Positions 15,189-54,403 of a stretch of 64,000 nt of DNA are shown here, piece by piece. The translations under genes and the position numbers were made by a program. Each line of letters starts with the position of its first letter. Within the stretch, counting starts at the first letter, position 1. The notes under the pieces are model-generated. The model was not told where the DNA came from and made no database searches. It saw only the letters and a program-made list of their open reading frames with translations. Origin of the DNA: an uncultured Candidatus Saccharibacteria bacterium (GTDB taxonomy: Bacteria; Patescibacteriota; Dojkabacteria; B142; OLB20); contig CAYWVD010000001.1 of assembly GCA_964461915.1 (NCBI GenBank), forward strand, positions 156,671-220,670. The letters run 5' to 3'.

Positions 15189-16580
15189 GTGAAAAAATCA
15201 ATCATTAACACTTTTTTAATGGGCATCTTTGTGGTTTTTGCATTAACTATTGCAATACCAACATTTATCGTAAATATAAACAATCAAAACTATAAGATTC
15301 GAGGGTGGGACCCAATCGATTTTAATCCAAATTTTTTACTTTCAGAATTTAAGTTCTTACCTTCTCTAGATCTATATGGTGGCTCAATTTCAACGATTTC
15401 TGTTGATATGAAAGATGTTCCAGAGGAGCAAAAACTTACTGTTTTAGAAAATACTAAGAATTTACTTTATAGAAGACTTTTAAAAACAAATCCTGGGTAC
15501 TTCGAGATCAATAGTATGGTGAATAAAGAGAAGAATGAATACAATTTGATTTTAAAATTATCAGAAAAAATCAGCGGAGACTATTTATCTATATTAATTT
15601 CTCCAGCAAATATTTCGTTTTGGGTAGAAGACACACAAACTTCTTCAACTGTAACACCAGAAGAGGCCCAGAATAACCCATTAGCAGGTAGAAAAGCTTC
15701 AGCTTTAACAAATGAAGATATTGAATCTGTTTCAGTAATTTCGGATTCTACTTGTTATATTAATGACCCTCAAGCTCCTAGAAATTATTGTTTGAAAATA
15801 ATCTTTAAAGAAGCTTCTAAAAATGAATTTGTAGCAGCACTTTATCAAAGCACAAGTGGTCAATATCCAATGATGATGCTTTTAGATGGTTATCCTATTG
15901 CTGTCCAATCGATGGGGCAATTTTATTCCGGTGTTACTCCAGATAGAGAATTGGTTATTTATCCTGGGATTATCGATACTTGGCTCGCAAATTCTGTATT
16001 GGGAGCAATTGTGAGCGATCAGCCGATTGATAAAACTTTAACTATAGCGAATACAAATACTGTTGAGGCCAGTCTTGGGGCAAATGCTATGATCAATATT
16101 AAGATTGCTTGTGCCTTATCATTAATCGCGGTTATTGCCCTTATTGTTTTCTATTTTAGAAAAAGAAGTACATTAGCAATTTCTTCGATTTTTATTTATG
16201 GAATTATAGTTGTTGCCATAATGAAAGTTTTTAACTTGGTTTTAGACTTAGCCACTATTCTTGGAGCTGTGGCTGGTTTTGTTATGTTCCTGTCTTTGGT
16301 TATTTATTTATTATATAGACTTAGGACTGCTTCAAAATCTGGATTAATTGCGTCTGAAATCGAATCTGAATTCAATTATATTAAAATAGCTTATCGGAAT
16401 ATAACCATAGCATTCATAATCACTACCTTTATTGTGTCTTTGTTTTCTCCGATATTTATTATTAACTTTTATAATAGTTTAGGATTTGGCGTGATCTTGG
16501 GTTATTTTATATTTGCGAATTTTGTTAAAAATTTATTACCAATCTTATTTTTACCTAAAGAAAAATGGCAAACTTTTTAA
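15189..16580 (+). CDS. secD: protein-export membrane protein SecD (divergent)
   Basis: N-terminal TM, then LPSLDLYGGSISTISVDM matches the SecD/SecF 'LGLDLrGG...VD' periplasmic-domain motif. The C-terminal 6-TM block is RND-like (GAVAGFVMFLSLVIYLLYRLR). Size 463 aa. Confidence 0.6.
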   Translation: MKKSIINTFLMGIFVVFALTIAIPTFIVNINNQNYKIRGWDPIDFNPNFLLSEFKFLPSLDLYGGSISTISVDMKDVPEEQKLTVLENTKNLLYRRLLKTNPGYFEINSMVNKEKNEYNLILKLSEKISGDYLSILISPANISFWVEDTQTSSTVTPEEAQNNPLAGRKASALTNEDIESVSVISDSTCYINDPQAPRNYCLKIIFKEASKNEFVAALYQSTSGQYPMMMLLDGYPIAVQSMGQFYSGVTPDRELVIYPGIIDTWLANSVLGAIVSDQPIDKTLTIANTNTVEASLGANAMINIKIACALSLIAVIALIVFYFRKRSTLAISSIFIYGIIVVAIMKVFNLVLDLATILGAVAGFVMFLSLVIYLLYRLRTASKSGLIASEIESEFNYIKIAYRNITIAFIITTFIVSLFSPIFIINFYNSLGFGVILGYFIFANFVKNLLPILFLPKEKWQTF

Positions 16581-17482
16581 GATCAAAAAAAGGAGTAGTC
16601 CTATCAGCGCTTCTTTTATTAGTAATTTCTATTGTTTCAATAGTTTATTTTAAATTAAACATCGGTCCATTTTTTAATGACTCTACTGTTCTTTTAATTC
16701 AGGTCGATCATGAAGTGGAAACTGATAACATAGCAAATGAGTTATATAGTTTCTCAAAACCCTCAAGGATTGAAAAAGAAAGTACTTCAAAATTTTATAT
16801 TCATTATCAACAAATCACCGAAGAAGAAAAATCTGTTGTCTTAAATACAATCGATTCGAAGATTCCGGGCTTAGTTACAAAAACTTTTTATAATTATTAC
16901 CCCGCCAAGGAAATCCTTTTAGCTGAAAGAGCTGGGATTGTCGCGGGGTCCATACTACTAGTCGCAATAGTGTATATGTTTGTTGAATTTAGGAAGACGG
17001 GTTTATTATTAAAAGAAGTTCTTAATCTATTATTAAAAGAGTTATTGATGACAGTCTATTTGATTTTGGTATTGCTCGGGTTTGTATCCATTGTGGGTGC
17101 TTTAGGCGTTGTCATGGAATCAACATTCTTTATTCTAACTATTACTAGTGTCTTTATAATAGTATTGTTTAATATTTATTATGTTTTTCGCTTTAAGCAT
17201 TTGAAAATCTTAAATGAAAAAATGAAAATTTCTGAAATTTCACAAAAAATTTCAAAAGACTATTGGCCTGAATTCGTTTTCTTATTAGCTGTAGTACTAG
17301 TCATTTTTGTTTTACCATGGTTAGTTGTGTCTAGAGATGTTACATTTGGGGTTGTTCAAATACTTTTTGCTATGCTCTTAATTGCTTACAACTTCTTTAT
17401 TTTAAGAGAAAATCTATTGCCATCGAATTTGTTTCAAAATAAAATCTTTAGAGATAGCAAATTATTAAATAAAAAATGGTAA
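16565..17482 (+). CDS. secF: protein-export membrane protein SecF-like (divergent)
   Basis: 305 aa, overlaps secD by 16 nt. N-terminal TM plus a small periplasmic domain, then RAGIVAGSILLVAIVYMFVEFRK resembles the start of the SecF TM bundle. Confidence 0.45.
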   Translation: MANFLRSKKGVVLSALLLLVISIVSIVYFKLNIGPFFNDSTVLLIQVDHEVETDNIANELYSFSKPSRIEKESTSKFYIHYQQITEEEKSVVLNTIDSKIPGLVTKTFYNYYPAKEILLAERAGIVAGSILLVAIVYMFVEFRKTGLLLKEVLNLLLKELLMTVYLILVLLGFVSIVGALGVVMESTFFILTITSVFIIVLFNIYYVFRFKHLKILNEKMKISEISQKISKDYWPEFVFLLAVVLVIFVLPWLVVSRDVTFGVVQILFAMLLIAYNFFILRENLLPSNLFQNKIFRDSKLLNKKW

Positions 17483-21772: not shown

Positions 21773-23560
21773 TTAGATAAAAATTGGTGAAATTAATTTA
21801 ATTACATCGGCTGGCTTCATTTTAATTGATTCGGTATTTAAACCATCGTTGAATGCCGAAACAGCTTTGCTTTCAATCTCTCTTGAAAAATAGGTTGTCA
21901 TCCCTAAAAGATTTCCAAAAGGTGGGATTGAGCCTAGTTCTAGTCCAAATTTGTCTTTGATGATTTGAGGATTCTCAAATTCAAACTTCTCAGTTTCAAA
22001 GTTGGCAAGTAAGTTCATATCCAGCTTTTGATCGGCTGGAATACAAACCATAATATTCTTACCTGTTTTTTTCCCTCTTAATATAATGGCCTTAATTCCT
22101 TCATCGAGCTTGGTGTTTCTTAGTGTGGCTGATTCTTCAGAGGTTTTTGCAGGCTCATGGGTTACTGTTTCGAATTTGATTTTATTTTTGTTAAGTTGAG
22201 ATAATATTTCTGTATTTAATTCTTTGCCAAAGAAAATCTTAGGAGCTATTCTTACTCCTCCAATAAGTTTTGGATCTGATGGGAATAATTCGGCTTCTTT
22301 GATATTATCTAGACCAATCATTTTTTGGACAAATCTTGCAATTCCTAAGCCAAAACCGCCTTCCTCAGGCATGCCGTATTTAAAACCATCTAAATATTGT
22401 TTTAAACCTGGGTTATTTGAATCAATCCCTTTGGATTGGATTTGCGAAACTAACTTCTCATAATTTACTTCACGCCTAGTAATGGTAGCAAGTTCTACAC
22501 CTCGGAATATCAAATCAGCTCTATCTGCAAATTCTAGGTTTTTCTCATTTTGATGATGATAAAATTTTGCATCGGCCCAAGGGAAGTCAACAATAAATAA
22601 GGCTTCACTATTCCAGTTCTTAATGGAATATTCAGTAATGAACTTTTCCTCAGAGGGTGCAACATCCATTTCGCCTGTGTGATCTTCACCTGTCTCTTTT
22701 TTCATAAGCTCATGAAGATCTTTAACACTTATTCGAGGAAGTTTTTCAGAAATGATTGGCTTTTTTGCTCCAAGTTCTTCTAAAAGAGTCTTTGATTCAT
22801 TCCAGGTATTTTCGGTTATGTATTTGATAAAGGTCTCGGATACATTAAGAATATCTTCAAAGGAATTAATAAATCCCATCTCCATGTCCAACATTAAGAT
22901 CTCGGAGACATGTCTGCTGGTATTACTTTTTTCGGCTCTATAGGCTCTTCCGATTTCATAAACTTTTTCAAAAACTCCTACCATGATTTGTTTATAAAAC
23001 TGAGGGCTTTGCGCCATATAGGCTTTTTTATCAAAATAATTAACTTCGAAAACTTCTGCGCCACCTTCAGTTGGGAAGGCGATCATTTTTGGTGAATTAA
23101 TTTGAGTGAAATCATTTTGGTTGAAAAAGTCCCTAATAATCCTTTCTGCATTACTCGCTATTTTAAAAATTGATGATTGCTTGGGGTGTCGTAAAGTTAC
23201 AACTCGATTCTCAAGCATAGTATCAAATTCGACATTAAGATCATTCTTAGAAATATCGACCGGACTAGGAAATTTGACAGGCTGAATTATTTCAATATTG
23301 CCTTTTTGAACTTCCACGCCATATTGTGATTTTTCCGAAAGTATTGCATTACCTTTTATTCTTAAAACTGACCCAGTGTATAAACCGTCTAGTTTTTTAA
23401 TCTCTTCTTCAGATTCTAAAACAATTTGGCTTAAACCTTTTCTGTCTCTAAGGATCAAGAACGCAAGCTTTCCCATTGTTCTTAAATTATGGAGCCAGCC
23501 TTCAAGTAGGATTTCTTCGCCAATGTGATTTTTAAGATCATTCGATAATATTCTTTGCAT
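21773..23560 (-). CDS. aspS: aspartate--tRNA ligase, archaeal/eukaryal type, fused to C-terminal YbaK/ProX-like aminoacyl-tRNA deacylase domain
   Basis: N-terminal OB-fold anticodon domain, class II motifs (FTQINSP; GGAEVFEVNYFDKKAYMAQSPQFYKQ; GRAYRAE; GGFGLGIARFV). The last ~150 aa align end to end with E. coli YbaK (LNKNKIKFETVTHEP vs LEKNKISFQIHTYEHDP; KAII vs KTLL; GSIPPFG vs GGISPLG). Confidence 0.8.
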   Translation of the reverse strand: MQRILSNDLKNHIGEEILLEGWLHNLRTMGKLAFLILRDRKGLSQIVLESEEEIKKLDGLYTGSVLRIKGNAILSEKSQYGVEVQKGNIEIIQPVKFPSPVDISKNDLNVEFDTMLENRVVTLRHPKQSSIFKIASNAERIIRDFFNQNDFTQINSPKMIAFPTEGGAEVFEVNYFDKKAYMAQSPQFYKQIMVGVFEKVYEIGRAYRAEKSNTSRHVSEILMLDMEMGFINSFEDILNVSETFIKYITENTWNESKTLLEELGAKKPIISEKLPRISVKDLHELMKKETGEDHTGEMDVAPSEEKFITEYSIKNWNSEALFIVDFPWADAKFYHHQNEKNLEFADRADLIFRGVELATITRREVNYEKLVSQIQSKGIDSNNPGLKQYLDGFKYGMPEEGGFGLGIARFVQKMIGLDNIKEAELFPSDPKLIGGVRIAPKIFFGKELNTEILSQLNKNKIKFETVTHEPAKTSEESATLRNTKLDEGIKAIILRGKKTGKNIMVCIPADQKLDMNLLANFETEKFEFENPQIIKDKFGLELGSIPPFGNLLGMTTYFSREIESKAVSAFNDGLNTESIKMKPADVIKLISPIFI

Positions 23561-23592: not shown

Positions 23593-23638
23593 GAGCCGTT
23601 TTAGATTATATAAAAAAATTTACAATCTAAAAGGGCCC
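23593..23638. promoter_or_regulatory. strong hairpin in aspS 5' leader (terminator-like on minus strand)
   Basis: GAGCCGTTTTAGATT ... AATCTAAAAGGGCCC pairs 12 of 13. On the minus strand it is followed by a U-rich tract ending at the aspS ATG. Confidence 0.3.
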
Positions 23639-23856
23639 TTCATTTTTAAAAAATATCGGGTGGTGCCACCTTTGTTCTACAAATGCAATCGCTTGATTTA
23701 TAGCACTTTATGAAGATATTTAGTTTTAATCACTTAATTTTTAAGGCTTACACCAAACCCTTAATCGCTTATGTTTATTTTAACATATATCTTAAATTTA
23801 AAAAGTAGAGGTCCTTCAATTTTATTGCTATAATTTTTGAAAATAGTTTTGCAAAA

Positions 23857-24540
23857 TTGAAAAACTTCGGTCGTATAGTTTTACTGTTAATAGTACTTAT
23901 TCTTATTGGGATTTGGTCCCCTTGGCATAATTGGGATTTTTCCTTCCTATCAATGATAGGTATAGAAAATGATAATAGCTATTCTACACTTAAAGTTAAA
24001 TCATTATCTGGAAGCATAGATATTTATATCGATGACAAACTTGAAGGTAGTGTTGTTGCTGATGAATCTTTTGCAGAAATAAATACCATAAAAGAGGGCA
24101 TGCACTTAGTAAAACTTAAAAGGCAATCCGAAAATGGAGACATCTATTTTGAACTTAATAAAGAAATTAACTTTATTTCTGGAGTTGAAGTAGTTATGGC
24201 TTATGATCTTGGGCCATCTGAGGCTTTTTCAGAAGGTCATATTCTTTTCACTTCAAAAAATTACAAGAAAAACCAAAACCCTGTTGTTAATATAATTTCT
24301 TCACCAGAAGATCTAAATGTTTTTATTGATGATGAGCAAATTGGTACGACCCCAATAAGTGAATTAGAATTAGATTTGTCAAGACAACATAAGATCAGAT
24401 TTGAGAAAACCGGTTACGATTCTTTAGAATTTATGATTTTACCCGAAGATCAAGAGAGTAGGGATAAATTGAAAGATTTAACGATCAATCTTGAGGTAAA
24501 TTTATTTTTACAGCCGGTTAAAATAATTAAAAATACCTAA
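23857..24540 (+). CDS. membrane-anchored PEGA-domain protein (TTG start as given by track)
   Basis: N-terminal TM and two PEGA-like repeats (IDIYIDDKLEGS...; NVFIDDEQIGTTPIS...GYDSLEFMI). Confidence 0.45.
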   Translation: MKNFGRIVLLLIVLILIGIWSPWHNWDFSFLSMIGIENDNSYSTLKVKSLSGSIDIYIDDKLEGSVVADESFAEINTIKEGMHLVKLKRQSENGDIYFELNKEINFISGVEVVMAYDLGPSEAFSEGHILFTSKNYKKNQNPVVNIISSPEDLNVFIDDEQIGTTPISELELDLSRQHKIRFEKTGYDSLEFMILPEDQESRDKLKDLTINLEVNLFLQPVKIIKNT

Positions 24541-27500
24541 TGGTCACTGCCAATCAATTAAAAAACGCAATAAAATTTCCGACCTCGATTATTGTAAGGG
24601 GACAAGATCTTCTTGGGATTGAACTAGCAAAATCTCTATTAGAACAAGGTGGATTTGTAATTATTATCGATAAAGGCAGTCGAGAAGTTGAAAAATATTT
24701 ACCACTTATAGATTCCTATAAGAATTTAGTTTTAATGGATTATAGCGGCATAAGTTCGCTCCAAAGGGATCTAAGAAGGCTTGATTATGTTTTTTATCTT
24801 GATCATCAATATTCAGATTATTCGGAGAAAATTTCTACACAAGAATTTTTACAAGCATCAAATTATTTAGACACTGTACTTGATTTGACTGCAAAATTTG
24901 ATGCGAAATTCTTACTTACAACCTCAATTAAAGCGCATCAAGCGATTGTTGGAAATAAAGTCATCGATTTAAATTATGAAATGCAGGCTGCAGAAAAATA
25001 CTCTGCATATTCTGAGCTTGAAATTCAGAGATATTCTGAAAGTCTTGTTCGTGAATACCAGGAGAAGGTGGGTATTAATACTCGAATCGTTAGATTGGGG
25101 ACATTACTTGGCAGAGGTATGGAAATCAACCTTGATTCCATAGTAGTAAAATTGATAATTCAAGCCTTACAAAACGAGAGACTATTAATCCCCGGCGATG
25201 GTCTTGATACAGATTATTACATCCATTACCTTGATGCCGCTTATGGAATAATTAAGGCACAATTTTCACCAAATACAAAAGGTCAAATTTTTACATTATC
25301 AAATGAAGAGGAGATTTCTGTATTAGGCATAGCATATAAATTGATAGAACTCATTCCATCGGCTAAAGAAATTCAATTTGATCAAAATGATAATTCTCTT
25401 CCTCCAATTAAATTGTACAAACCAGCTGCTAATCTTACATCTATTGGCTGGTCACCAAGAATATCCTTCGATAGGGGTTTATCTCAGACTATTGATTTTA
25501 TAAAAGCGAGACTAAGTGAAGTGAATGGTAATGTGCAAAATTTAGAAAAAGAACTTATTCCCATATCAGGGAAAAAGGAACCGAAAGAAATCAAAAAGAA
25601 ATTTCTAGACTTCTTTTTCATTGCATCTAAAGAAGATGATCCATCTGCTACAGCCAATTTGAATACTCAAAACCTTAACAGCGAAGGAGCTTTAGCTAGG
25701 CTTATAGCGGAAAGAAAAAATCAAGAAAGAGCTAGAAAGGGGAGCATAATTTTAGCGAATAATAATTTACGAGAAGCTCTTCAGAAAAGGCCCGATCGAA
25801 CTCCTTTAGAAAGGTTTGATGATTGGCTAAATGATTTATTTGTGAGAATAAAACAAAGATTAAATGTCTTTAAAAATTTGACTCTCAAAGAATTTGCACT
25901 ATGGATGGCCGGACTGACTGCTTTTTTTATCATCTATTTCATATTTATTTCTCCATTGCTAAGTCTGTCAAAGGATATCCTCCTTTTTAGAAAAAATATT
26001 AAAGATTTATCAAATTCAGCAGAAATTTATAATTTCAATGAAATAAATGTAAAAACAAATGAAATTCTTGAAAACATCAATAATATTGAATCCAGATTAA
26101 AAGATCTTGAATTTGCATTTGTTTTAGTCAACCAAAATGATATTTATGCAAATACCAGATTGTTTATAACACAAGTAGAACAGTATTTTTTTGGGTTAGA
26201 TAATTATTCAAAATCTCTTATCCCATTAGATAATTTTCAAAAGATCTATTCACCGGGATTTGTCCAAAGATTAGATGAACAATTAATAATCGCAGATAAT
26301 AAGTCGAATTATATTGATAATCTTAACGAGCTATATAAAAACAGGTCGCTACTATCTTTAGGTCAAAAAGCAATGGAAGAAAATCAAGGTAGGATAATTG
26401 AAGGATTAAAATCTTTTCCAGATTGGGCAAAAACTTTTTTTGGCAATGATTTAGAAAGTTCTTTAACTTTTTATGAAGATGGCAAAGATATTGTAGAAAC
26501 TGTTAATAATTTGAATGTTCTTGTTGGCAAGGACAAAATGAGGCATTACTTAATAATCTTGCAAGACAATGAAAGATTTTATGCAAATGGTGGAAAGCTA
26601 GTGGGTTATTATCTATTAGGTGTTCAAAATGCTGAAATTAAAAATGTTAAATTTGTAAATATTTCTGAATTTCAAAATATTAATCCTAATTTATCAACAG
26701 CAGCAGTTAAAGATATAACTTTAGTGAGTAAGAAGATGCTCACACTTAACAATGTGGTTTTTAATGATATAAATTTTATTTCTGATCCCGACCTATTCTA
26801 CGATGAAGTTGAAGAAGTTGTTGAAGCAAAAGAACTAGTTCCCATTGATATGGGAATAATTGTAAATATGAATGCAATTGCTAATATAACCGGTGAAAGT
26901 GGGGATTTAATATTCAAACAAAAAAACATTTCGACAAACAACTTTTACGAATCGTTCAATGGTTTTCTAGCAAGTGATGCTACAGATAAACAAAGAAATG
27001 ATTTGATAATTTCGTATTTTTCTACGCTTTTAGAGAAAAAGGTTAACAATGTTTTTATTGATAAATCAATTAGCGATGCAGTCTTTAAATCAATATCATC
27101 TAATGATATTAGGGTATTTACAAATGAACCAATAATTCAAAAATATTTATCAAGTATTTTTACAGATATTAAAGTTAAAGATGAAGTGTTCATAGGAATG
27201 AACTATGACGGTATGTCAGCAAAATTTTCAAATTTAAATGATATTGAAATCTCGGGCAATATCCTAGTTAAAAAAGATTTTACTACAACAAAGAATTTTA
27301 AAATTAAATTCAATGCAAATGGAGTGCTGAATACATATTTTTGTATGCCAAGCAGTGTTTCAGAACTCGATATTAACGAAACTGCTACCGAAAACTATTC
27401 TCAAGCCTTTGATGTAACCAATCTCCAGAAGCTTTGCGTAATAATGCTTCCTGATGACGATCTAAAATATGGAATAAATTATAAAACTGGAGTTTTTGAA

Positions 27501-27707
27501 AAAACTACTGATTCAAGCTATAATTATTTATTCAAGATAAATTCCATCTCAGGCACTCAAGTAAATTATGATTTAGAGTTTTTGTTTGAAGATACACTGG
27601 ATCATGTGATTCCGATAACTGAAAACTCAATTAATCAATCTGATGGATATTTATTTAAAGGACAGTTTGTAAATTCAAAAACTTTTAATTTTAAAATTAA
27701 CCGATAA
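24540..27707 (+). CDS. large membrane protein: degenerate NAD-epimerase-like N-domain + TM + DUF4012-like extracytoplasmic domain
   Basis: N-terminal ~330 aa have an SDR/epimerase fold but the Gly motif is degenerate (VRGQDLLG) and YxxxK is missing. TM at ~aa 455-478. C-terminal region contains HYLIILQDNERFYANGGKLVGYY, resembling the DUF4012 LLxQNnaElRxtGG motif. Confidence 0.4.
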   Translation: MVTANQLKNAIKFPTSIIVRGQDLLGIELAKSLLEQGGFVIIIDKGSREVEKYLPLIDSYKNLVLMDYSGISSLQRDLRRLDYVFYLDHQYSDYSEKISTQEFLQASNYLDTVLDLTAKFDAKFLLTTSIKAHQAIVGNKVIDLNYEMQAAEKYSAYSELEIQRYSESLVREYQEKVGINTRIVRLGTLLGRGMEINLDSIVVKLIIQALQNERLLIPGDGLDTDYYIHYLDAAYGIIKAQFSPNTKGQIFTLSNEEEISVLGIAYKLIELIPSAKEIQFDQNDNSLPPIKLYKPAANLTSIGWSPRISFDRGLSQTIDFIKARLSEVNGNVQNLEKELIPISGKKEPKEIKKKFLDFFFIASKEDDPSATANLNTQNLNSEGALARLIAERKNQERARKGSIILANNNLREALQKRPDRTPLERFDDWLNDLFVRIKQRLNVFKNLTLKEFALWMAGLTAFFIIYFIFISPLLSLSKDILLFRKNIKDLSNSAEIYNFNEINVKTNEILENINNIESRLKDLEFAFVLVNQNDIYANTRLFITQVEQYFFGLDNYSKSLIPLDNFQKIYSPGFVQRLDEQLIIADNKSNYIDNLNELYKNRSLLSLGQKAMEENQGRIIEGLKSFPDWAKTFFGNDLESSLTFYEDGKDIVETVNNLNVLVGKDKMRHYLIILQDNERFYANGGKLVGYYLLGVQNAEIKNVKFVNISEFQNINPNLSTAAVKDITLVSKKMLTLNNVVFNDINFISDPDLFYDEVEEVVEAKELVPIDMGIIVNMNAIANITGESGDLIFKQKNISTNNFYESFNGFLASDATDKQRNDLIISYFSTLLEKKVNNVFIDKSISDAVFKSISSNDIRVFTNEPIIQKYLSSIFTDIKVKDEVFIGMNYDGMSAKFSNLNDIEISGNILVKKDFTTTKNFKIKFNANGVLNTYFCMPSSVSELDINETATENYSQAFDVTNLQKLCVIMLPDDDLKYGINYKTGVFEKTTDSSYNYLFKINSISGTQVNYDLEFLFEDTLDHVIPITENSINQSDGYLFKGQFVNSKTFNFKINR

Positions 27708-28174
27708 TGGATAATAAAACTCAAATCACAAAAGAAGGTTTAGCTGATTTAGAAAAAGAACTTGCTGATAGAATAAATGTAGTAAGGAAAAAGATAGCTG
27801 ATGAAATTGAAACAGCTAGGGAGCAAGGAGATCTCTCTGAAAATGCAGCATATAAAGCAGCAATGGATGAAAAAGAATTCAATGAAAAGAAGATAGAAGA
27901 ATTACAGGATCTTATAAAAAATGCTGTTATTATTGAAGAAAATCATAAAACCTCTAATGCTGTAATTGGTAAAACAGTTGTCGTCTTGAACAAAACTACG
28001 AATTCTAAATCTACATTTGAGTTGGTCGGTGCAAGTGAAGCTGATCCGACCAATGGCAAGATTTCAATCGAATCGCCTTTAGGAATGTCGATTGTTGGTA
28101 AAAAGAAGGATCAATCTTTTAAATTCGCTACTCCAGTTGGAGAATATGAATATGTGGTCCTAGAAATTAAATAA
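27707..28174 (+). CDS. greA: transcription elongation factor GreA
   Basis: N-terminal coiled coil with the acidic tip AREQGDLSENAAYKAAMDE and a C-terminal FKBP-like domain. Confidence 0.85.
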   Translation: MDNKTQITKEGLADLEKELADRINVVRKKIADEIETAREQGDLSENAAYKAAMDEKEFNEKKIEELQDLIKNAVIIEENHKTSNAVIGKTVVVLNKTTNSKSTFELVGASEADPTNGKISIESPLGMSIVGKKKDQSFKFATPVGEYEYVVLEIK

Positions 28175-28196
28175 GTTTATTATTGTTAAAATTTAA

Positions 28197-29204
28197 ATGG
28201 AAAGACATCCAGTGCCCCATAATTTTATGGATGTTGAATTTAAGCTTTTCGGTTTTTTTACTGTAAAGCAATTTGGATATTTGGCTGTTGGCTTTATTCT
28301 CTCATTGCTTATTTATTACTCGACTTTCCCTGATATTCTCAAGTTAATTTTCATTGGAGTTTCAATGGGTAGTGGGCTTGTTTTAGCGCTTGTTAAAATA
28401 AATGGCCAACCATCGGTAATTTATGTCCAAAACTTTATTACTAGTTTATTTGAACCCCAAGAAAGGCTCTGGAAAAAGACTCCTGTTGTTCCAGACATTT
28501 TACAAGAATCAAAGAACAATACAAAAGTTGAATCTAATAAAGAACTAGATAGCGCGCTTTCTAGAATAAAAGTTGCAAATATACCAGATCAGCCTTTAGC
28601 AAAATTATCTGAAGAAGAAGAAAAACTCGATAAATTCGAAAATGAAAATCTCAACAAAATTGACGAACATTTTGATTTCCTTTTTAATCAAGTCCCTGAA
28701 ATACAAGGCGAAAAATCTCAAACGCCATCTCACGATCGGGCCGTAAATACTCCACCAATAAACGAAACTATGTTTAAAAAGCCATCGACGATTGCTGATT
28801 CGATTAATCAAAATCTTCCGGGTGAAAAACTTTATGAAGGATCAAATTACGCTGTTTCGTTTAAACCTATGACGAGTAGGGTTAATAGACCGATTAATTT
28901 TAATGTTGCAAATCCTACCATGGCCGTTGTTAAAAATAATAATGCAAAATTGTACTTAACGGGAATAGTCGTTGATAGTGCTAATCAACCTATAAAATCA
29001 ACTAGAGTGGATATCATTGATCTTTCGGGCAAATTAGTTAGGTCACTAGCTACGAATAATGAGGGCAGATTTGAATTGATAAACCAATTACCAAGTGGCG
29101 ATTACTATTTAGATATTACAAAACCTGACTTCAACTTTGATCGCATAAGCGTTAATATAGAGGAAGGAAAATTATCAGACATTATTATTAAAGCGAAAAA
29201 CTAA
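28197..29204 (+). CDS. PrgI/VirB3-like membrane protein with C-terminal carboxypeptidase-regulatory-like beta-sandwich domain
   Basis: MERHPVPHNFMDVEFKLFGFFTVKQFGYLAVGFILSLLIYY matches the PrgI family N-terminus (VPQ..D.EDKI.G.LTLRQF.YL), with two TMs. C-terminus YLTGIVVDSANQPIKSTRVDIIDLSGKLV...GDYYLDITKPDFNF. Confidence 0.5.
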   Translation: MERHPVPHNFMDVEFKLFGFFTVKQFGYLAVGFILSLLIYYSTFPDILKLIFIGVSMGSGLVLALVKINGQPSVIYVQNFITSLFEPQERLWKKTPVVPDILQESKNNTKVESNKELDSALSRIKVANIPDQPLAKLSEEEEKLDKFENENLNKIDEHFDFLFNQVPEIQGEKSQTPSHDRAVNTPPINETMFKKPSTIADSINQNLPGEKLYEGSNYAVSFKPMTSRVNRPINFNVANPTMAVVKNNNAKLYLTGIVVDSANQPIKSTRVDIIDLSGKLVRSLATNNEGRFELINQLPSGDYYLDITKPDFNFDRISVNIEEGKLSDIIIKAKN

Positions 29205-29869
29205 TGGGATTATTCGGGTCATCTACAACACCAAGTACACAACAACATCTAGCGATTGAAGATATCAGGGACGATCTTGTAATCCTTAAAAATGGAATGA
29301 TTTCGTTAGTTCTCGAAGTAAATGCTTTGAATTTCGATTTGTTATCAGAGAAAGAGCAAGACATTAAAATCATGAGTTTTGCAGGTCTTTTAAATTCTTT
29401 GGAATTTCCTTTCCAAATCGTTATTCGTACAGAAAGAACAGATATTAGTACATATTTAGATAGATTAAGAATCTATAGAGAGAAACAAATATCCGATGCC
29501 CTAAAAAGACAAATAGATATTTATATGCAATTTATTCAGAATTTAACTGCGAATAAAGATATTCTTGATAAAACCTTTTATGTCGTAATTCCTGAGACAG
29601 GTAGTGTAGTCCAAAAAACTAGTAGTGTTAAACAATTTTTTGGCAAAAAAGAAAAGATTATTAATGTTAATTCAATTATGGACGAAATTAAGCCTAGGCT
29701 TTACCCTAAAAGAGATAATTTTATAAAACAATTTAAAAATATTGGTTTAACAGCATTTCAACTTGATAATGATCGACTCATCAAGCTTTATTATTCAATG
29801 TACGATCCAGATAAATTAGGAGTTTCTAAATTACAATTAAAAACAACACAATACACATCTAGTAAATAA
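29204..29869 (+). CDS. VirB4/TrsE/PrgJ N-terminal domain protein (separate ORF)
   Basis: HLAIEDIRDDLVILKNGMISLVLEVNALNFDLLSEKEQDIKIMSFAGLLNSLEFPFQIVIRTER matches the Gram-positive VirB4 N-domain. Stop overlaps the next start (TAATG). Confidence 0.55.
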   Translation: MGLFGSSTTPSTQQHLAIEDIRDDLVILKNGMISLVLEVNALNFDLLSEKEQDIKIMSFAGLLNSLEFPFQIVIRTERTDISTYLDRLRIYREKQISDALKRQIDIYMQFIQNLTANKDILDKTFYVVIPETGSVVQKTSSVKQFFGKKEKIINVNSIMDEIKPRLYPKRDNFIKQFKNIGLTAFQLDNDRLIKLYYSMYDPDKLGVSKLQLKTTQYTSSK

Positions 29870-31929
29870 TGAATATACTTGACGCAATATTAGGCAGAAA
29901 ACCAACTCAAAACGCCCCTCAAATTCAAGGACAAAAGTCTGTTGCCGATCATCAGACTAATCAATCACAAGTATCTAAAACAACTCCTGTAGCTTCAAAT
30001 AAAGCCGATGTCAAAGAAAATAAAAAAGAAAGCATTGGAATTAAACAAGTTTTAGAGGCTGTTATGGGTAAGCCAGAGGTAAAAGTAACGGAAGAAAAAA
30101 CTGAACAGCAATTAGAAGAAGAGGCTATTAAGAATTTTTCCGAAGGTATAGTTGATGTTAAAGATATCATTGCTCCGCCAGCTATTGAGATAGACTTTAA
30201 TAACATGCAAATAGGTAGTAAATATTTTAGGACCTTTTTTGCGACAGGATTCCCAACTTGGGTAGGCGCTAATTGGCTGTCCCCCCTTATAAATTTTGAA
30301 AAACCGATCACGATTTCAACTTTTTATTATCCAACAGATTCTGGACTTGTTTTACAGAGACTAAAAAGGAAGATAACTGAATTCCAAGCTACTTTGAACT
30401 TGGATTTAGAAGCAGGGAAACTTCCTGATCCAAATGTAAAGGTCGCATTAAGATCAGCGGAAGAACTTCAAGACCAGATTGCTTCTGGTAATCAAAAATT
30501 TTTTCACTTTGCTTTATATGTAACAATTCGTTCAACAAATCTAAAAGAGCTTGAGGAGATATCAAGAAATGTAGAATCAACCCTTTCAGCAATTGGAGTT
30601 ATTGTAAAAGTTGCTTCTCTTCAACAAGAGCAAGGCTTTATCTCAAGTCTGCCATTAGGATATGACAAAATCTATCTTAATAGGAATATGGACACAACTT
30701 CACTTGCGACTACATTCCCATTCGTATCTTCTGAGCTTACTATGGACGATGGAATTATGTATGGAATCAATAAGCATAATAAGAGTTTGATCATTTTTGA
30801 TAGATTTCAAATGCCTAACCCCAATATGGTAATTTTTGCCACATCTGGAGCAGGTAAATCATACTTCGTAAAACTCGAAGCTATGAGAAGTTTAATGCTT
30901 GGAACGCATATTCTTATTATTGATCCTGAAAAGGAATACGAAAAACTTACAAATGCGATTGGGGGAGAATATATTACATTCTCTCAAGATTCGAGAGCAA
31001 AATTAAATCCCTTCGAGCTGTCTGGAATTTTTGAAAAAGATGAGGATGAGCTTCGATTCAAGATACTTTTTCTTCAAGGTTTAATTAGAATCATGGTAGG
31101 GGGTTCTTTAACTCCAATCGAAACTGCTATACTTGATAGAGCCTTGATCCTTACTTATAAAGAAAAGGGCATTACTCCTGACCCATCAACGCAAAGACGA
31201 CCTCCACCACTACTGGAAGATCTTTATAAGATTTTAAATGCAATGGCAGAAGACGAAGCTCATTTACTTGCAAGTAAAATTGAAAGGTTTATAAAAGGTA
31301 GCGCAGCTGGAGTTTTCGATCAAGCCACAAATGTAAAAATTAACAATACATTTACTGCTTTTAGTATTAGGGATTTATCTGATGAACTTAGGCCTGTCGC
31401 AATGTATATCATGTTGGATTATATCTGGACGCTTGTTAAAAAAGATAAAAGACAAAGGATTCTAATTATTGACGAGGCTTGGTGGATGATGCAATATCCT
31501 GACGCTGCTCGTTTTGTGTATTCTATTGTAAAAAGATCTAGAAAATATGGACTAGGAGTAACCACAATCACACAGGATGTTAATGACTTTTTGAATTCTG
31601 ATTATGGAAAGGCTGTAGTTAATAACTCTTCGATCCAACTTCTACTAAAGCAAAATGCTGCTGCAGTCGATCAGATACAAAAAGTTTTCTATTTGTCTGA
31701 TGGAGAGAAAGATTATTTATTATCGGCTGGCATTGGAGAAGGTTTGTTTTTTGCTGATTATAATCATGTTGCTATTCAAGTTTTAGCTAGTGAAAATGAG
31801 CATAACCTTATAACAACAAACTTAAGAGAACTACTTGCGATGGAAACTAAGGCCAAAGATGAAGCTGCTGCGGTAAAAGATGTTAGACCTCAAAAAAGTG
31901 TAGTTAAGACGAATTTATCAGTAGAATAA
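29869..31929 (+). CDS. virB4: VirB4-like type IV secretion ATPase (ATPase domain)
   Basis: Walker A FATSGAGKSYF, Walker B ILIIDEAWWMM, and a C-terminal CagE/TrbE/VirB architecture. Confidence 0.8.
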   Translation: MNILDAILGRKPTQNAPQIQGQKSVADHQTNQSQVSKTTPVASNKADVKENKKESIGIKQVLEAVMGKPEVKVTEEKTEQQLEEEAIKNFSEGIVDVKDIIAPPAIEIDFNNMQIGSKYFRTFFATGFPTWVGANWLSPLINFEKPITISTFYYPTDSGLVLQRLKRKITEFQATLNLDLEAGKLPDPNVKVALRSAEELQDQIASGNQKFFHFALYVTIRSTNLKELEEISRNVESTLSAIGVIVKVASLQQEQGFISSLPLGYDKIYLNRNMDTTSLATTFPFVSSELTMDDGIMYGINKHNKSLIIFDRFQMPNPNMVIFATSGAGKSYFVKLEAMRSLMLGTHILIIDPEKEYEKLTNAIGGEYITFSQDSRAKLNPFELSGIFEKDEDELRFKILFLQGLIRIMVGGSLTPIETAILDRALILTYKEKGITPDPSTQRRPPPLLEDLYKILNAMAEDEAHLLASKIERFIKGSAAGVFDQATNVKINNTFTAFSIRDLSDELRPVAMYIMLDYIWTLVKKDKRQRILIIDEAWWMMQYPDAARFVYSIVKRSRKYGLGVTTITQDVNDFLNSDYGKAVVNNSSIQLLLKQNAAAVDQIQKVFYLSDGEKDYLLSAGIGEGLFFADYNHVAIQVLASENEHNLITTNLRELLAMETKAKDEAAAVKDVRPQKSVVKTNLSVE

Positions 31930-31934
31930 GATAT

Positions 31935-32507
31935 ATGGACCTATTTCAACAACAAATTTCAATAAATTTGAATAGCTTATTTTTTATTGCTTTGATATTA
32001 TTATCTTTAATATTACTAATAATTGTATTTTTTCAATTAAGAATTAAAAAGCTAACCATGGAAAACGAAAATAAAACCAATACAGGCTTTTTAGGGAAGT
32101 CTCTCTACGCTTTACTGGGTCTTTTTGTAATCGGCGCCGGAATTGTCTTTGCTGTTTTAGCTTTAAACAAACAAGAAATATTTAATATTGAAGCAAAAAG
32201 GACTGTTACCGCCGACATTTATACACAGGTTTTAATGGTCGATGGTGATCATTCCTATGTAGACTTTAAAGTTACCCCTAGTGTTGAGGGGGTAGTATGG
32301 GGTGAAACCGGTTCTGAATTTGAAATATATTGGTCCTTTGTAAAGATGGATGATTCTTCTGTAAATTATTCTTTTATTGAAAAATCAAAAGATATTAATA
32401 ATCGAAGTGGTCTTCAAGATTATTTCGAAAATGGTTCATACAATTTAAATGTAACTATCCTCTTCGAAGATGAATCATATACATTTACGAAAGTAGTTGA
32501 TTTCTAG
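31935..32507 (+). CDS. hypothetical two-TM membrane protein (last gene of T4SS-like operon)
   Basis: Two N-terminal TM helices and a beta-rich C-terminal region. No recognisable family. Confidence 0.3.
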   Translation: MDLFQQQISINLNSLFFIALILLSLILLIIVFFQLRIKKLTMENENKTNTGFLGKSLYALLGLFVIGAGIVFAVLALNKQEIFNIEAKRTVTADIYTQVLMVDGDHSYVDFKVTPSVEGVVWGETGSEFEIYWSFVKMDDSSVNYSFIEKSKDINNRSGLQDYFENGSYNLNVTILFEDESYTFTKVVDF

Positions 32508-32518
32508 TATAATTATCC

Positions 32519-32843
32519 CAACTGATCAAGATAGTAGCCCCTAAAATAATATTTATGGGGAGGAAAGTCCGGACTCTAAGCTAAGTAAAAATTAGCAAAA
32601 AGTACCATGGAAACATGGATAGGTGTGAGCTTATAGAACAGGGCCACAGAAAGCAAAATCCCAAGTCTAATCGATTTGGAGATTGTGAAAAGGTGGTGTA
32701 AAAGACCACCGGTTTCAACTGTAAAGTTGAAATGCTGGGTAACCCTTACTTTAGAGCAACTAGAAAGTCTCTAGGCATAGATAAATTACTATCTGAATCC
32801 AAAACTAATTGGAAGATACAGAATCTGGCTTATTGATCAGTTA
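32519..32843 (+). ncRNA. rnpB: RNase P RNA (bacterial type)
   Basis: P4 strands GGAGGAAAGTCCGG (32559-32572) and ACAGAATCTGGCTTA (32817-32831). P1 pairs AACTGATCAA with TTGATCAGTT. Internal ACAGAAAGCAAA and GGTGGTGTAAAAGACCACC (GGUAA-type P15/16 region). Confidence 0.85.
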
Positions 32844-32846
32844 AAA

Positions 32847-33548
32847 TTATTCTTCTCTGGTTCGAGATAATCCTTGGATCCTAAAAACGAAGTACAATAG
32901 TTGACCTAGTGACTGAAAAAGTCCAGCAACATAGGTAAGAGAAGCAGCTACAAGTACCGATTTTATCGCAGGCTTTTCAGATGGGAAGATCAATTGATTT
33001 CTCTCCAAAATTTTTATTGCTCTATCACTTGCATCAAATTCCAATGGGACTGTCACTAGTGCAAAAACAGTTGCAAGCGAAAAGAAAATAACACCTAACC
33101 ATGCTAGACTTGAGAATTCAAGTACGAACCCTATTATGAGTAAAATGTAACCAAAATTCGTGCCAAAATTAACAAGGGGTACTATTCCTGTCCTAATCCT
33201 GAACAAAAAATTATTCTTTTGATGTTGAACTATATGACCAAGTTCATGGGCGGTAATTGCTGTGGAAGTAATAGTGCGTCCGTGTGCGCTATCAATCGAT
33301 AAATTTAATGTGTGACTTGAAGGATCATATGATTCACTCAGCAAATCGGGTAGTAGATTAATTTGGAATTTTATATTTTCACTTCTGCCGATTTGTTCGG
33401 CAACTTCTATTCCAGTTAACTTCCTTTTAGTTTCGATTTGGTTATATTTTTTTACCGAATAATTTAAAAATAAAGTAGCACCTAATCCTAAAATCAATGC
33501 AGGAAGGGCGAAAAGAAGATATATCGGATCAAAAGTCGGGAAGAACAT
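32847..33548 (-). CDS. Zn_peptidase_2 family putative neutral zinc metallopeptidase (membrane)
   Basis: ITAHELGHIVQHQKNNFLFRIRTGIVPLVNFGTN (HExxH) and TLPVEFDASrRA-like VTVPLEFDASDRAIKIL. Confidence 0.8.
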   Translation of the reverse strand: MFFPTFDPIYLLFALPALILGLGATLFLNYSVKKYNQIETKRKLTGIEVAEQIGRSENIKFQINLLPDLLSESYDPSSHTLNLSIDSAHGRTITSTAITAHELGHIVQHQKNNFLFRIRTGIVPLVNFGTNFGYILLIIGFVLEFSSLAWLGVIFFSLATVFALVTVPLEFDASDRAIKILERNQLIFPSEKPAIKSVLVAASLTYVAGLFQSLGQLLYFVFRIQGLSRTREE

Positions 33549-33628: not shown

Positions 33629-34003
33629 ATGAATGTTTATAAACCTGGACAAATTAATATTGGGGAGAAAGGTCTCGAGAAACATCGGGACATGGCCATT
33701 GGAGCTGGAATGATAACTATGGGCTGGACTTTTTTAAGCTATGTTTGGGTATTCTCTACGGTATTACAACTTTTTGTATTCATACCGGCGCTTTTTTGCA
33801 TTTTAGGGATAATTCAGTACAGAAATAAGTTCAATATAATTTTTGGTTTAACTCAAAAATACAATGTGGACGATTCCCCAGAACCACACAATGTTTTGGA
33901 TAGTGTCTCAATTGATAAAGATCGTGAAAGGGCTGTGTTTTTATTATTGCTCTCAATTTTTTTGGCACTTTTATACAGTGTGATAATCATCCTGATTTTT
34001 TAA
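33629..34003 (+). CDS. hypothetical small membrane protein
   Basis: 124 aa with 3-4 hydrophobic helices. No family recognised. Confidence 0.3.
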   Translation: MNVYKPGQINIGEKGLEKHRDMAIGAGMITMGWTFLSYVWVFSTVLQLFVFIPALFCILGIIQYRNKFNIIFGLTQKYNVDDSPEPHNVLDSVSIDKDRERAVFLLLLSIFLALLYSVIIILIF

Positions 34004-41382: not shown

Positions 41383-41649
41383 ATGAAAGTACTTAAATTT
41401 GGTGCAATTTGGTGTTCGGGATGTTTAGTAATGAAGCCTAGATGGGCTGAAATTGAAAGAGAATTAACTTGGCTTATTACTGAGTACCACGATGCAGATA
41501 CTGAAAAAGAACTAGTAAAAAAATATTCGGTTAAGTATTATCCATGTTTTATTTTTTTTGATAAAGAAGGTAATGAAATACATCGAGAGTATGGTGAAAT
41601 AGAAAAAGAAAAATTAATTGAGATTATTAATACTTATAAAGATAAATAA
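41383..41649 (+). CDS. thioredoxin-like protein (WCSGC)
   Basis: KFGAIWCSGCLVMKP has a CxxC in thioredoxin-fold context. 88 aa. Confidence 0.6.
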   Translation: MKVLKFGAIWCSGCLVMKPRWAEIERELTWLITEYHDADTEKELVKKYSVKYYPCFIFFDKEGNEIHREYGEIEKEKLIEIINTYKDK

Positions 41650-41650
41650 T

Positions 41651-42898
41651 ATGATTGGTAGACTGCTCAAAATAACATTGTCATTAGCAATCCTATTTGG
41701 TGTTTTTTTTGCAGGCACTATTAACGAAGTTAGCGCAGAAGTTAATGAACCCATTAATGTTTATCTTTTTTATGGGCAAGGTTGTCCTCATTGTGCAAAA
41801 GAACGAGAATATTTAACGACTCTAAAAGATACCTATGGTAATAAAATAAACATTTATGAATATGAGGTCTATTACAATCAGGAAAATGTCAAACTATTTA
41901 CTAAAACCTCGGAGTTTTTAAATATTGATGTCGGAGGAGTTCCTTTTCTTGTTATTGGAGAGAAGTACTTTGTTGGTTACGAGAGTAATGAAACGACTGG
42001 AACAGAAATTTCAAATGAAATCGAACGATGTATCGAGCATGGCTGTATAGATAATCTATCTGAGTTGCTTCTTGGAGAAAAAAAGTTAAATACTACCAGT
42101 ACTCCCAAAGGTGTAATCATTTCGAGTGGTACTAATTCTGAAAATAATTCTCCACTGTACTTAGAGACATATATTTTTGGAAAAATTAACATTAAAGACA
42201 TCTCTCTCCCTCTTGCAACCATATTAATTGCATTAGTTGACGGATTTAATCCTTGTGCGATGTGGATTCTTATCTTTCTAATTACCATGTTAATAAACAT
42301 GAAAGATAAAAGGAAACTGTATATTTTAGGATCAACTTTTATCTTTACCTCTGGGATTGTTTATTTCTTCTTCCTTTCTGCTTGGTTTAATTTTTTTAAA
42401 CTTGTAGGTTATGTATATTGGATAAAAGTTATTATTGGAATTATCGCAATAGTTAGCGGAATCTTACACATTAAAAGTGCATTGTTTTCAAAAGGAGGAT
42501 GTCATGCAACCAACGAGAAACAAAGAGAAAGCATCATAGAAAGAATTAAAAAGGTTTTAGGAGAGAAAAGCTTTGTATTGGCAATATTTGGAATTGTAAC
42601 ACTAGCCATTTCAGTAAATTTAATCGAAGTTGTATGCTCTGCTGGACTTCCAGCTGTTTATACCAACCTTTTATCATCAATAAAATTATCTCCTTTTGAA
42701 TACTATTTCTACTTGTTCCTTTATGTGATTATTTTTATGTTGGATGATCTAATTATATTTTTCATTGCAGTAAAAACTTTTGAAGTAACAGGAATAACAA
42801 AGAAATACACAAAATGGTCAAGTCTTATAGGAGGCATAATTATTTTAATTATTGGAATAATTTTAATAATAAAACCTGAACTTTTGATGTTCGGGTAA
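41651..42898 (+). CDS. thioredoxin-like (CPHC) domain fused to CcdA/DsbD-type thiol:disulfide-transfer membrane domain
   Basis: Signal peptide, then YLFYGQGCPHCAKEREYL. TM domain has ALVDGFNPCAMWILIFL (compare the CcdA LSPCvLPl motif) and a second Cys (VVCSAGLPAV). ATG at 41651 avoids overlap with the trx gene. Confidence 0.65.
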   Translation: MIGRLLKITLSLAILFGVFFAGTINEVSAEVNEPINVYLFYGQGCPHCAKEREYLTTLKDTYGNKINIYEYEVYYNQENVKLFTKTSEFLNIDVGGVPFLVIGEKYFVGYESNETTGTEISNEIERCIEHGCIDNLSELLLGEKKLNTTSTPKGVIISSGTNSENNSPLYLETYIFGKINIKDISLPLATILIALVDGFNPCAMWILIFLITMLINMKDKRKLYILGSTFIFTSGIVYFFFLSAWFNFFKLVGYVYWIKVIIGIIAIVSGILHIKSALFSKGGCHATNEKQRESIIERIKKVLGEKSFVLAIFGIVTLAISVNLIEVVCSAGLPAVYTNLLSSIKLSPFEYYFYLFLYVIIFMLDDLIIFFIAVKTFEVTGITKKYTKWSSLIGGIIILIIGIILIIKPELLMFG

Positions 42899-52539: not shown

Positions 52540-53025
52540 ATGGCAAAAGCCAAAAATTTCAAGGGTTTTACCCTTATTGAAATTCTAGTGGTTGTGGCCT
52601 TAATTGCAATTTTAACTGCAATTACTTTTATTGCCATCAACCCAGCAAAGAATTTCGCAGATACAAGGAATGCACAAAGAAGTTCTGATGTAGGTCAGAT
52701 TCTAAATGCAATGACTCAGTACACTTCTGATTCAGGAAGAACAACAGCAGCTCTAGAAACAGAATTTGCTGTAACAATTCCTTCATGCGATGCAGTAGCA
52801 CCTTCACCAACAGCAATTCAAATTGGATCAGGTGTCGGATTATTAAACTTGGGTGATGCAACAAAAGCATTAGTTGATGAATATATTGTTGGTATCCCTT
52901 TTGATCCAAGCACAGGTACAGCAGCTGCTACAAATTACTGGGTATGTCAAACTACAGGTGGAAGACTACAAGTTAGTGCTCCAGGTGTAGAAAATGGTAA
53001 ACCAGTCATCGTAGTAAAGAGATAA
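52540..53025 (+). CDS. pilA: type IV pilin (prepilin N-methylation motif)
   Basis: KGFTLIEILVVVALIAILTAI is the class III signal with the Glu5 motif. Confidence 0.85.
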   Translation: MAKAKNFKGFTLIEILVVVALIAILTAITFIAINPAKNFADTRNAQRSSDVGQILNAMTQYTSDSGRTTAALETEFAVTIPSCDAVAPSPTAIQIGSGVGLLNLGDATKALVDEYIVGIPFDPSTGTAAATNYWVCQTTGGRLQVSAPGVENGKPVIVVKR

Positions 53026-53042
53026 AATTTTATTAAAATTTT

Positions 53043-54388: not shown

Positions 54389-54403
54389 TATTAAATAAAT
54401 AAA

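Follow-up and report, generated by a model that had tools for sequence, protein, structure and literature searches.

The DNA analysed here, hereafter the window, is a 64-kb stretch from a member of the Candidatus Dojkabacteria (WS6; candidate phyla radiation (CPR)/Patescibacteria), and this report concerns a block of seven plus-strand genes within it (23857-32507) that places a minimal type IV secretion system (T4SS)-like gene set directly behind genes for a PEGA protein, a giant DUF4012-type protein and the transcript-cleavage factor GreA. It is likely that the block consists of two independently conserved chromosomal modules arranged head-to-tail, which are probably read through as a single transcript in this lineage. 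The seven genes, designated g1 to g7, are as follows.

23857..24540, plus strand: g1, PEGA protein of 227 aa, first gene of module 1
24540..27707, plus strand: g2, giant protein of 1055 aa, module 1
27707..28174, plus strand: g3, greA, last gene of module 1
28197..29204, plus strand: g4, PrgI/VirB3-like protein, first gene of module 2
29204..29869, plus strand: g5, TrsD-like protein, module 2
29869..31929, plus strand: g6, VirB4-family ATPase, module 2
31935..32507, plus strand: g7, transmembrane (TM)-hairpin/Ig-like protein of 190 aa, lineage-specific companion of module 2

An open reading frame (ORF) scan recovered these seven genes with coordinates identical to those in a preliminary description of the same DNA, and independent public assemblies carry identical gene calls. 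From g1 to g7 the six junctions measure -1, -1, +22, -1, -1 and +5 nt, and all four -1 junctions read TAATG, the ATG of the next gene beginning with the last A of the preceding stop codon, so that the short junctions and repeated stop/start overlaps reported earlier are borne out. No plus-strand terminator-like site was seen within the block by a terminator scan. Because the spacer between greA and prgI (g4) is just 22 nt long and holds no terminator, transcriptional read-through from greA into prgI is likely in this lineage; for the block as a whole, co-transcription is probable.

Synteny of the locus across Dojkabacteria

Gene order was compared among 80 species-representative virB4 loci and three loci with a stand-alone giant (L087, L088 and L089). 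Arrangement groups were defined by profile searches from the window proteins, and only loci with enough upstream sequence were sorted. Group A (25 loci) has the order PEGA-giant-GreA-PrgI-TrsD-VirB4, usually with g7 next, group C (18 loci) has PrgI-TrsD-VirB4 only, with LepA and a RecF/SMC-type ATPase among its neighbours, and group B (22 loci) has TrsD-VirB4 only, amid unrelated housekeeping genes (a major facilitator superfamily transporter, U5-methyltransferase or DsbA upstream, and a single-stranded DNA-binding protein (SSB) downstream). The group-B SSB gene lies right after virB4 and encodes about 105 aa (11984-12301 in L048, 11965-12279 in L049); it may be either a housekeeping SSB or a PrgE-like, T4SS-associated one. 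A PrgI-like protein was detected in 51 of the 80 species loci, while TrsD was directly upstream of virB4 in every one of them (80/80; median junction 1 nt), which rules out a frameshift artefact.

The giant is still found in group-B genomes. For example, in BOLA01000001 the giant trio lies at 393-412 kb and virB4 at 1,087-1,109 kb, about 690 kb apart. There and in two further genomes (loci L087, L088 and L089), g1, giant and greA form a stand-alone trio, with T4SS genes absent within 8 kb. A g1 orthologue immediately precedes the giant in 20 group-A loci as well as in 3/3 stand-alone trios, where its hidden Markov model (HMM) E values range from 1e-61 to 1e-74, and greA immediately follows the giant in every group-A locus and likewise in 3/3 stand-alone trios. 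Across loci, median lengths of -1 to 3 nt were found for the junctions g1|g2, g2|g3, g4|g5 and g5|g6, while greA|prgI is the loosest (median 27 nt, maximum 621 nt).

As each stays intact when the two are apart in other Dojkabacteria, g1-giant-greA is one conserved unit and PrgI-TrsD-VirB4 another. The comparison with related genomes that the preliminary description had proposed thus finds the flanks to be syntenic and divides the block in two. The view taken there of the seven genes as one functional unit is not supported, since the trio and PrgI-TrsD-VirB4 each occur alone, and functional coupling of greA and the giant to the T4SS looks improbable, given the stand-alone trio in other Dojkabacteria and the loose greA|prgI junction. 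What stays together throughout is PrgI-TrsD-VirB4 alone, reduced in one sub-lineage to TrsD-VirB4, and the position of greA and the giant next to the T4SS is a lineage-specific juxtaposition of separable modules. Overlapping, tight packing in small genomes should not be equated with a functional unit, as it was comparative synteny that split this 'operon'.

In a midpoint-rooted neighbour-joining tree of VirB4, built within the class without outgroups or support values and with inferred polarity, group C branched deepest, group A formed one large clade and group B was nested inside A. The simplest history suggested by this topology would be one juxtaposition and one later break-up, with both units surviving intact.

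Sequence conservation differed widely among the genes. Median identity to the window protein across group A was 70% for VirB4, 55% for TrsD, 44% for GreA and 44% for the Zn-peptidase encoded downstream of the block, compared with 40% for g1, 34% for PrgI, 32% for the giant and 28% for g7. Judged by these identities, the constraint on VirB4 exceeds that on the housekeeping GreA. By analogy with the T4SS of Southlakia epibionticum, discussed below, such conservation would fit an essential role, and it speaks against the remnant of a mobile element in decay.

The window is core chromosome. The upstream flank holds a ribosomal-protein/SecY/IF-1/RpoA cluster, ThyX, LemA/DUF2207, a Suf operon and a class II Asp/Asn-type tRNA synthetase, and the downstream flank holds rnpB, the Zn-peptidase, Hsp20, peroxiredoxin/thioredoxin genes, a Y-family polymerase and a type IV pilus cluster; these flanking housekeeping genes keep their synteny across species. 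GC content is even along the window (about 0.28-0.35). No integrase, relaxase or tRNA gene was found on the flanks of the block within the window, whose sole tRNA gene sits 15 kb away, and annotation of the whole 64 kb detected no integrase, relaxase, VirD4, VirB6 or VirB2-like gene. The preliminary description, which had reported no VirD4, VirB6, relaxase or other mobile-element gene and had viewed the locus as a chromosomal, non-mobile, minimal T4SS-like module of a CPR bacterium, is upheld on both counts by the housekeeping flanks and by a window in which no integrative element was found.

Proteins of the two modules and their relatives

Profile searches placed the PrgI-like, VirB4, GreA and PEGA proteins above their family cut-offs, as had been assigned from the sequence, with PrgI being marginal. 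The PrgI domain (PF12666) of g4 scored 27.4 bits against a cut-off of 27, covering the whole model at residues 5-91, and two hydrophobic segments can be read from the sequence at residues ~25-66. A low-complexity linker of ~160 aa joins this part to a C-terminal CarboxypepD_reg beta-sandwich (37.7 bits, residues 254-329). The orthologue in L066 scored 29.5 bits for PrgI and likewise has the C-domain, which is present in 45/51 PrgI-like orthologues, group C included. No match to a plasmid PrgI was found by BLASTP.

The TrsD-like g5 aligned to positions 103-228 of the 894-position model NF045975 (VirB4_plasma; E 5.6e-9), of which g6 spans positions 257-893. In addition, g5 matched the TrsD/TraD family (E 7.9e-5) and has a precomputed Pfam match to PF26593 (TraC-like). 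A BLASTP search of g5 against one unsplit plasmid VirB4 and a PDB sequence search both found nothing, and hhalign of the TrsD profile against one plasmid VirB4 placed TrsD 9-84 on VirB4 21-99, the right region, at E 0.29. It is the curated profile HMMs that point to TrsD as a homologue of the VirB4 N-terminal domain. The 'split VirB4' of the preliminary description is accordingly correct as to the two adjacent genes but is not a peculiarity of this locus, being the TrsD plus VirB4 pair that is the commonest arrangement in Patescibacteria (PMC12102498).

The VirB4-family ATPase g6 scored 393.7 bits against NF045971 (VirB4 CD1110 family; cut-off 325), which is the monoderm CD1110/MPF-FATA type. 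Behind a low-complexity N-terminus of ~85 aa, its Walker A (GAGKS, 327-331) and Walker B (DEAW, 535-538) motifs are intact and are invariant across the VirB4 alignment, and its best solved relative is PDB 4ag5, the VirB4 C-domain of a Firmicute (E 3e-45). Identity was 55-93% across the 80 species loci and at most 37% to plasmid VirB4s, the nearest of which come from Bacillota/Actinomycetota. The named VirB4 homologues are from Candidatus Dojkabacteria, candidate division WS6 or Patescibacteria, bar one record labelled Rhodospirillales. These identities are consistent with membership of the Patescibacteria clade.

No family match was found for g7 in profile searches. Its AlphaFold2 (AF2) model, built on a shallow alignment given that a word-based homologue search returned 5 proteins, has helices at 12-44 and 53-80 followed by a 7-strand sandwich, with a confidence score (pLDDT) above 90; the TM hairpin contains a conserved GFLGK loop motif and the Ig-like C-domain is predicted to face outward. 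PDB structural matches were generic, all with E above 1e-3 and with no T4SS component among them. The gene was detected on the downstream side of virB4 in 23 loci, with no group-B or group-C locus among them. A VirB8-like subunit (bitopic, NTF2-fold) was considered for g7 and rejected, as the model has an all-beta Ig-like sandwich behind two TM helices; with 2 TM helices only, g7 does not look like a polytopic, VirB6-like channel.

Among the neighbours of virB4 in the window, no Pfam match to a VirB6-like channel or VirB2-like pilin was found. Further candidates were also rejected. The 124-aa two-TM ORF at 33629-34003 gave no pilin family match as a VirB2-like pilin, and the polytopic ORFs at 15189-17482 and 41618-42898 gave no supporting match as VirB6, in each case even at E up to 1. 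The first of these, at 15189-17482 (plus strand), consists of two overlapping adjacent genes of 463 and 305 aa downstream of LemA/DUF2207 that encode polytopic membrane proteins without a family.

Systems of this kind have been surveyed across Patescibacteria (PMC12102498; Quiñonero-Coronel et al. 2025, Microb Genom), where VirB4 was present in 2,417/3,035 genomes and nearly all of these VirB4s formed one clade nested in MPF-FATA, with chromosomal location and vertical inheritance within classes. In that survey TrsD was the most frequent partner, described as a remote homologue of the VirB4 N-terminal part and adjoining virB4 in 1,664 cases, PrgI/VirB3 adjoined virB4 in 880 cases, relaxases were almost absent and genes for the type IV coupling protein (T4CP) were mostly distant; the preprint version names Dojkabacteria explicitly among the carriers. 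The article and part of its supplement contain no mention of GreA, PEGA or DUF4012 near virB4. The window resembles the Patescibacteria-clade T4SS in its chromosomal virB4 of MPF-FATA ancestry, the TrsD gene upstream, the neighbouring PrgI/VirB3 homologue, the lack of a relaxase and of an adjacent T4CP, and vertical inheritance within the class. It differs in that a VirB2-like pilin, VirB6 and VirB1 were not detected near virB4, in that neither dnaA nor dnaN is in the window, in the CarboxypepD_reg domain borne by PrgI and in the lineage-specific g7 that follows virB4. Module 2 is a Dojkabacteria member of the already described Patescibacteria-clade T4SS, pared to a minimal core, and the PrgI-beta-sandwich fusion and g7 are its lineage-specific features.

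The T4SS cluster of Southlakia epibionticum has been found essential for epibiotic growth (PMC10633639; Wang et al. 2023, Cell), as restated in a 2025 review. Like the module in the window, the cluster of strain ML1 (SEML1_0006-0019) is of monoderm type in a CPR epibiont and is without a relaxase or recognisable coupling protein, and epibiotic growth depends on its VirB3-, TrsD- and VirB4-like genes. In contrast, it has an essential VirB2-like pilin array, VirB6 and cell-wall hydrolases, while the window has just three or four T4SS-related genes; essentiality is known from Southlakia only. The preliminary description suggested a domesticated apparatus of the kind proposed for episymbiotic CPR bacteria; a T4SS domesticated for the epibiotic lifestyle is already a published idea (PMC10633639, PMC12102498).

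Conjugative systems offer a more distant comparison. The Clostridium perfringens plasmid pSXP-169_2 (NZ_CP143494) shares the order PrgI then VirB4 and has a VirB4 of the same CD1110 family (about 32% identical), and in the pGO1 trsC-trsD-trsE subclass TrsD is likewise a separate gene (PMC12102498). The pSXP-169_2 locus, however, lies on a mobile replicon and encodes a VirD4-like T4CP, a 126-aa PrgI, an unsplit 783-aa VirB4, an SLT hydrolase and a topoisomerase, while the window is chromosomal and has none of the T4CP, SLT hydrolase or topoisomerase partners. The window VirB4 aligns to the plasmid VirB4 only from about residue 203 onward, and pairwise comparison detects no similarity of the window PrgI and TrsD to their plasmid counterparts. 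None of the hallmarks of a conjugative T4SS (relaxase, VirD4/TcpA, cell-wall hydrolase, location on a plasmid or integrative and conjugative element) is present in the window.

In module 1, g1 is a TM-anchored surface protein with one or more PEGA beta-sandwich domains (28.7 bits against a cut-off of 20.8; N-terminal TM helix at residues 4-22), and its TTG start is supported because the orthologue alignment begins at residue 1. The giant begins with an NAD-epimerase/dehydratase domain (37.7 bits) that the preliminary description does not mention. In order, its AF2 model (mean pLDDT 80) has a Rossmann domain, a disordered linker, a TM helix, a helical bundle, an α/β core that holds the invariant QDN...GG motif of DUF4012, and a β-rich C-terminal domain with two invariant Cys; the single long TM helix lies at about residues 450-470. 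As to the DUF4012-like assignment of the preliminary description, many full-length orthologues bear a precomputed PF13196 match, and the window protein itself scored 22.7 bits, below the cut-off of 28. The topology predicted from the model would place the short-chain dehydrogenase/reductase (SDR) domain in the cytoplasm and the DUF4012-type part outside as an ectodomain. Listed matches with this architecture are ~1000-1070 aa long, and the named ones are all Dojkabacteria.

The SDR fold resembles UDP-xylose synthase, an extended SDR. However, 30/30 sequences have another residue in place of the catalytic Lys, and the glycine motif is degenerate, so that the GxxGxxG and Ser/Thr-Tyr-Lys (YxxxK) signatures of extended-SDR nucleotide-sugar enzymes are not intact. 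DUF4012 appears in the literature only as a gene of the Bifidobacterium longum exopolysaccharide/capsular polysaccharide (EPS/CPS) cluster, beside a priming glycosyltransferase and Wzz, and as a CPR-enriched envelope family common to CPR and Gram-positive bacteria. Compared with B. longum BL105A_0406 (DUF4012) and UDP-xylose synthase, the giant fuses both types across a TM helix in ~1050 aa; unlike the UDP-xylose synthase-type SDRs it has the replaced Lys and degenerate glycine motif, and unlike the DUF4012 proteins of EPS/CPS loci its gene is always followed by greA. A role in envelope glycans is more likely for the giant than a role in the T4SS because of the SDR domain, the one TM helix and the DUF4012 ectodomain, and the g1-g2 pair is probably a glycan-related unit of the cell envelope. 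In L089, a second DUF4012 protein (1-655, minus strand; 715 aa) without an SDR domain lies ~7 kb from the giant, so DUF4012 paralogues exist in the class.

The product of g3 is a canonical GreA transcript-cleavage factor with a housekeeping role (TIGR01462, 154.6 bits against a cut-off of 139). Both GreA Pfam domains are present, as is the GDLSEN acidic tip read from the translation. The class-wide trio of PEGA protein, pseudo-SDR-DUF4012 giant and greA is a small uncharacterised curiosity in itself.

Function and alternative explanations

The Patescibacteria T4SS belongs to a small number of machines for which a requirement in the epibiotic lifestyle has been demonstrated. The locus brings no new principle to this picture, but documents the paring-down and scattering of T4SS genes in one class and offers two Dojkabacteria-specific leads, namely the fusion of PrgI with a beta-sandwich and g7. 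By inference from homologous systems, the PrgI/VirB3-like protein would tether a TrsD/VirB4 assembly to the membrane, TrsD would provide the VirB4 N-terminal domain as a separate polypeptide, and ATP hydrolysis by VirB4 would power assembly and/or substrate passage, while g7, going by its model, would present an outward-facing Ig-like domain. A VirB6-like channel, a coupling protein and pilins would either have their genes at other sites of the genome or have diverged beyond recognition. Judged from its homology to the Southlakia T4SS, such a machine would most likely exchange macromolecules with a host cell on contact and not act in conjugation. Module 1 would comprise an envelope pair, probably related to surface glycans, plus the housekeeping GreA, and would supply no T4SS component.

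Several observations weigh against this two-module reading. Group A keeps the modules adjacent in 25 loci even though the accessory proteins have diverged to 24-50% identity, which leaves room for co-expression and some functional link of the modules in that clade, and in the window the greA-prgI gap is very short and terminator-free. The PrgI score of g4 barely exceeds the Pfam cut-off, and the relation of TrsD to the VirB4 N-domain is HMM-based, with BLASTP and hhalign against one unsplit plasmid VirB4 being non-significant. No VirB6, T4CP or pilin was found in the window, so a complete translocon is putative, and the PDB fold searches with the giant were dominated by its SDR domain and gave no role for the ectodomain.

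Some of the same observations could be taken to mean that all seven genes encode one apparatus, in which the PEGA protein and the giant form an envelope or surface part replacing VirB6, VirB8 or an adhesin and the embedded GreA secures transcription of a long operon. This is rather unlikely. The trio and the T4SS core both stay intact when separated, and, as group B falls inside A on the VirB4 tree, separation was tolerated; the co-directional packing, TAATG overlaps, 22-nt greA|prgI spacer and lack of an internal terminator are what a single apparatus would lead one to expect, but greA|prgI is the variable junction among loci. Similarly, the full order is kept in 25 species-level relatives despite strong divergence, beta-sandwich domains occur in three of the proteins (g1, g4 and g7), and there is no recognisable VirB6/VirB8, so that unassigned envelope proteins are required somewhere; against this, the one TM helix and sugar-nucleotide SDR of the giant are unlike any known T4SS part and GreA is a canonical housekeeping factor.

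It is also unlikely that PrgI-TrsD-VirB4 is an importer of DNA or RNA from the host, comparable to the archaeal Ced system, and not an exporter. The VirB4 is weakly similar to CedD and to CedB, but the CedB score (NF041017, 66 bits) compares with a cut-off of 700 and falls far below the CD1110 VirB4 score. With no relaxase or T4CP, classical conjugative export is itself unlikely, import would suit organisms unable to make nucleotides, group-B genomes have the SSB gene directly after virB4, and a 2026 preprint ties patescibacterial T4SS-like pili to host RNA uptake. In Southlakia, however, the T4SS is essential whereas natural transformation through ComEC can be dispensed with, and the authors of that work lean towards protein export or some other role. 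The window itself holds nothing on transport direction.

An improbable variant that retains the two modules is that, in the clade in which they are fused, the envelope pair is co-expressed and functionally coupled with PrgI-TrsD-VirB4 and, separately, that the class-wide tie of giant and greA is regulatory and links envelope status to transcription. In such a scheme the giant might, for instance, respond to a nucleotide-sugar in the cytoplasm, by sensing or binding it, and act on the surface glycan at the site of T4SS assembly, by remodelling or penetrating it, and could thereby replace the unfound VirB6, VirB8 or hydrolase functions.

Finally, the idea that the T4SS genes are left over from an integrated conjugative element or plasmid now in decay, or that the VirB4 belongs to a HerA-type defence system, finds some support in a VirB4 family typical of Bacillota conjugative elements, weak PADLOC matches (mad8, 68.8 bits, and DndH) and a fragmentary T4SS gene set, but is very improbable and effectively refuted by conservation and synteny, as VirB4 is conserved more strongly than any other gene of the locus and keeps its synteny in 80 species, with invariant Walker motifs, GC is uniform with no integrase, relaxase or tRNA gene at the block flanks, the best plasmid VirB4 is merely 37% identical, and the PADLOC defence models score far below the VirB4 models.

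Candidate signals and other genes of the window

Two further features adjoin or overlap the block.

32518..32848, plus strand: rnpB (RNase P RNA, class A; RF00010, 143.8 bits), belonging to neither module
27496..27524, plus strand: candidate internal sigma-70-like promoter, TTGAAA-17-TATAAT, in the 3' end of g2, ~180 nt before greA

As the preliminary description had noted, rnpB follows the block immediately, beginning 10 nt past g7. It is directly after g7 in 7/7 group-A loci tested, yet is inverted in L019 (12490-12892, minus strand, versus the plus strand in the window), which indicates a local inversion. Because of this inversion rnpB is taken to have its own promoter, and a promoter-like site (score 10/12) lies near it at 32484-32513. 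The candidate at 27496-27524 is the best match of the region (11/12) and is a consensus match only, the overall number of such promoter-like sites falling below shuffle expectation; going by its sequence, it could drive greA and the T4SS genes too.

The 296-nt spacer before g1 contains a weak match to the T-box leader (RF00230) at 23628-23774 on the minus strand (22.3 bits against a gathering score of 93; E 0.0048 in a 401-nt search). This T-box-like match, which contains the GGTGGCACCACC element, precedes the divergent gene for the class II Asp/Asn-type tRNA synthetase, and much of the spacer may be the leader of that gene and not a g1 promoter. The synthetase gene itself (21773-23560, minus strand) encodes a class II (D/K/N-type) aminoacyl-tRNA synthetase with a C-terminal YbaK/tRNA_edit domain (PF04073, 66.9 bits), an unusual fusion.

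Other genes of the window lie further from the block. The type IV pilus cluster (52540-58838, plus strand), ~20 kb from the T4SS genes, comprises an N_methyl pilin, a T2SSE ATPase and a T2SSF platform protein, then four unannotated genes whose products have one N-terminal TM helix each, one being 650 aa long, and which are possible minor pilins. At 60270-63680 (minus strand), a 1136-aa protein combines PGM_PMM I-III, DUF3417 and a glycogen-phosphorylase domain, an unusual fusion joining two glycogen-breakdown steps. The ThyX (Thy1) protein at 8269-9843 (plus strand) is 524 aa long, far above typical ThyX length, and may be a duplicated or fused form.

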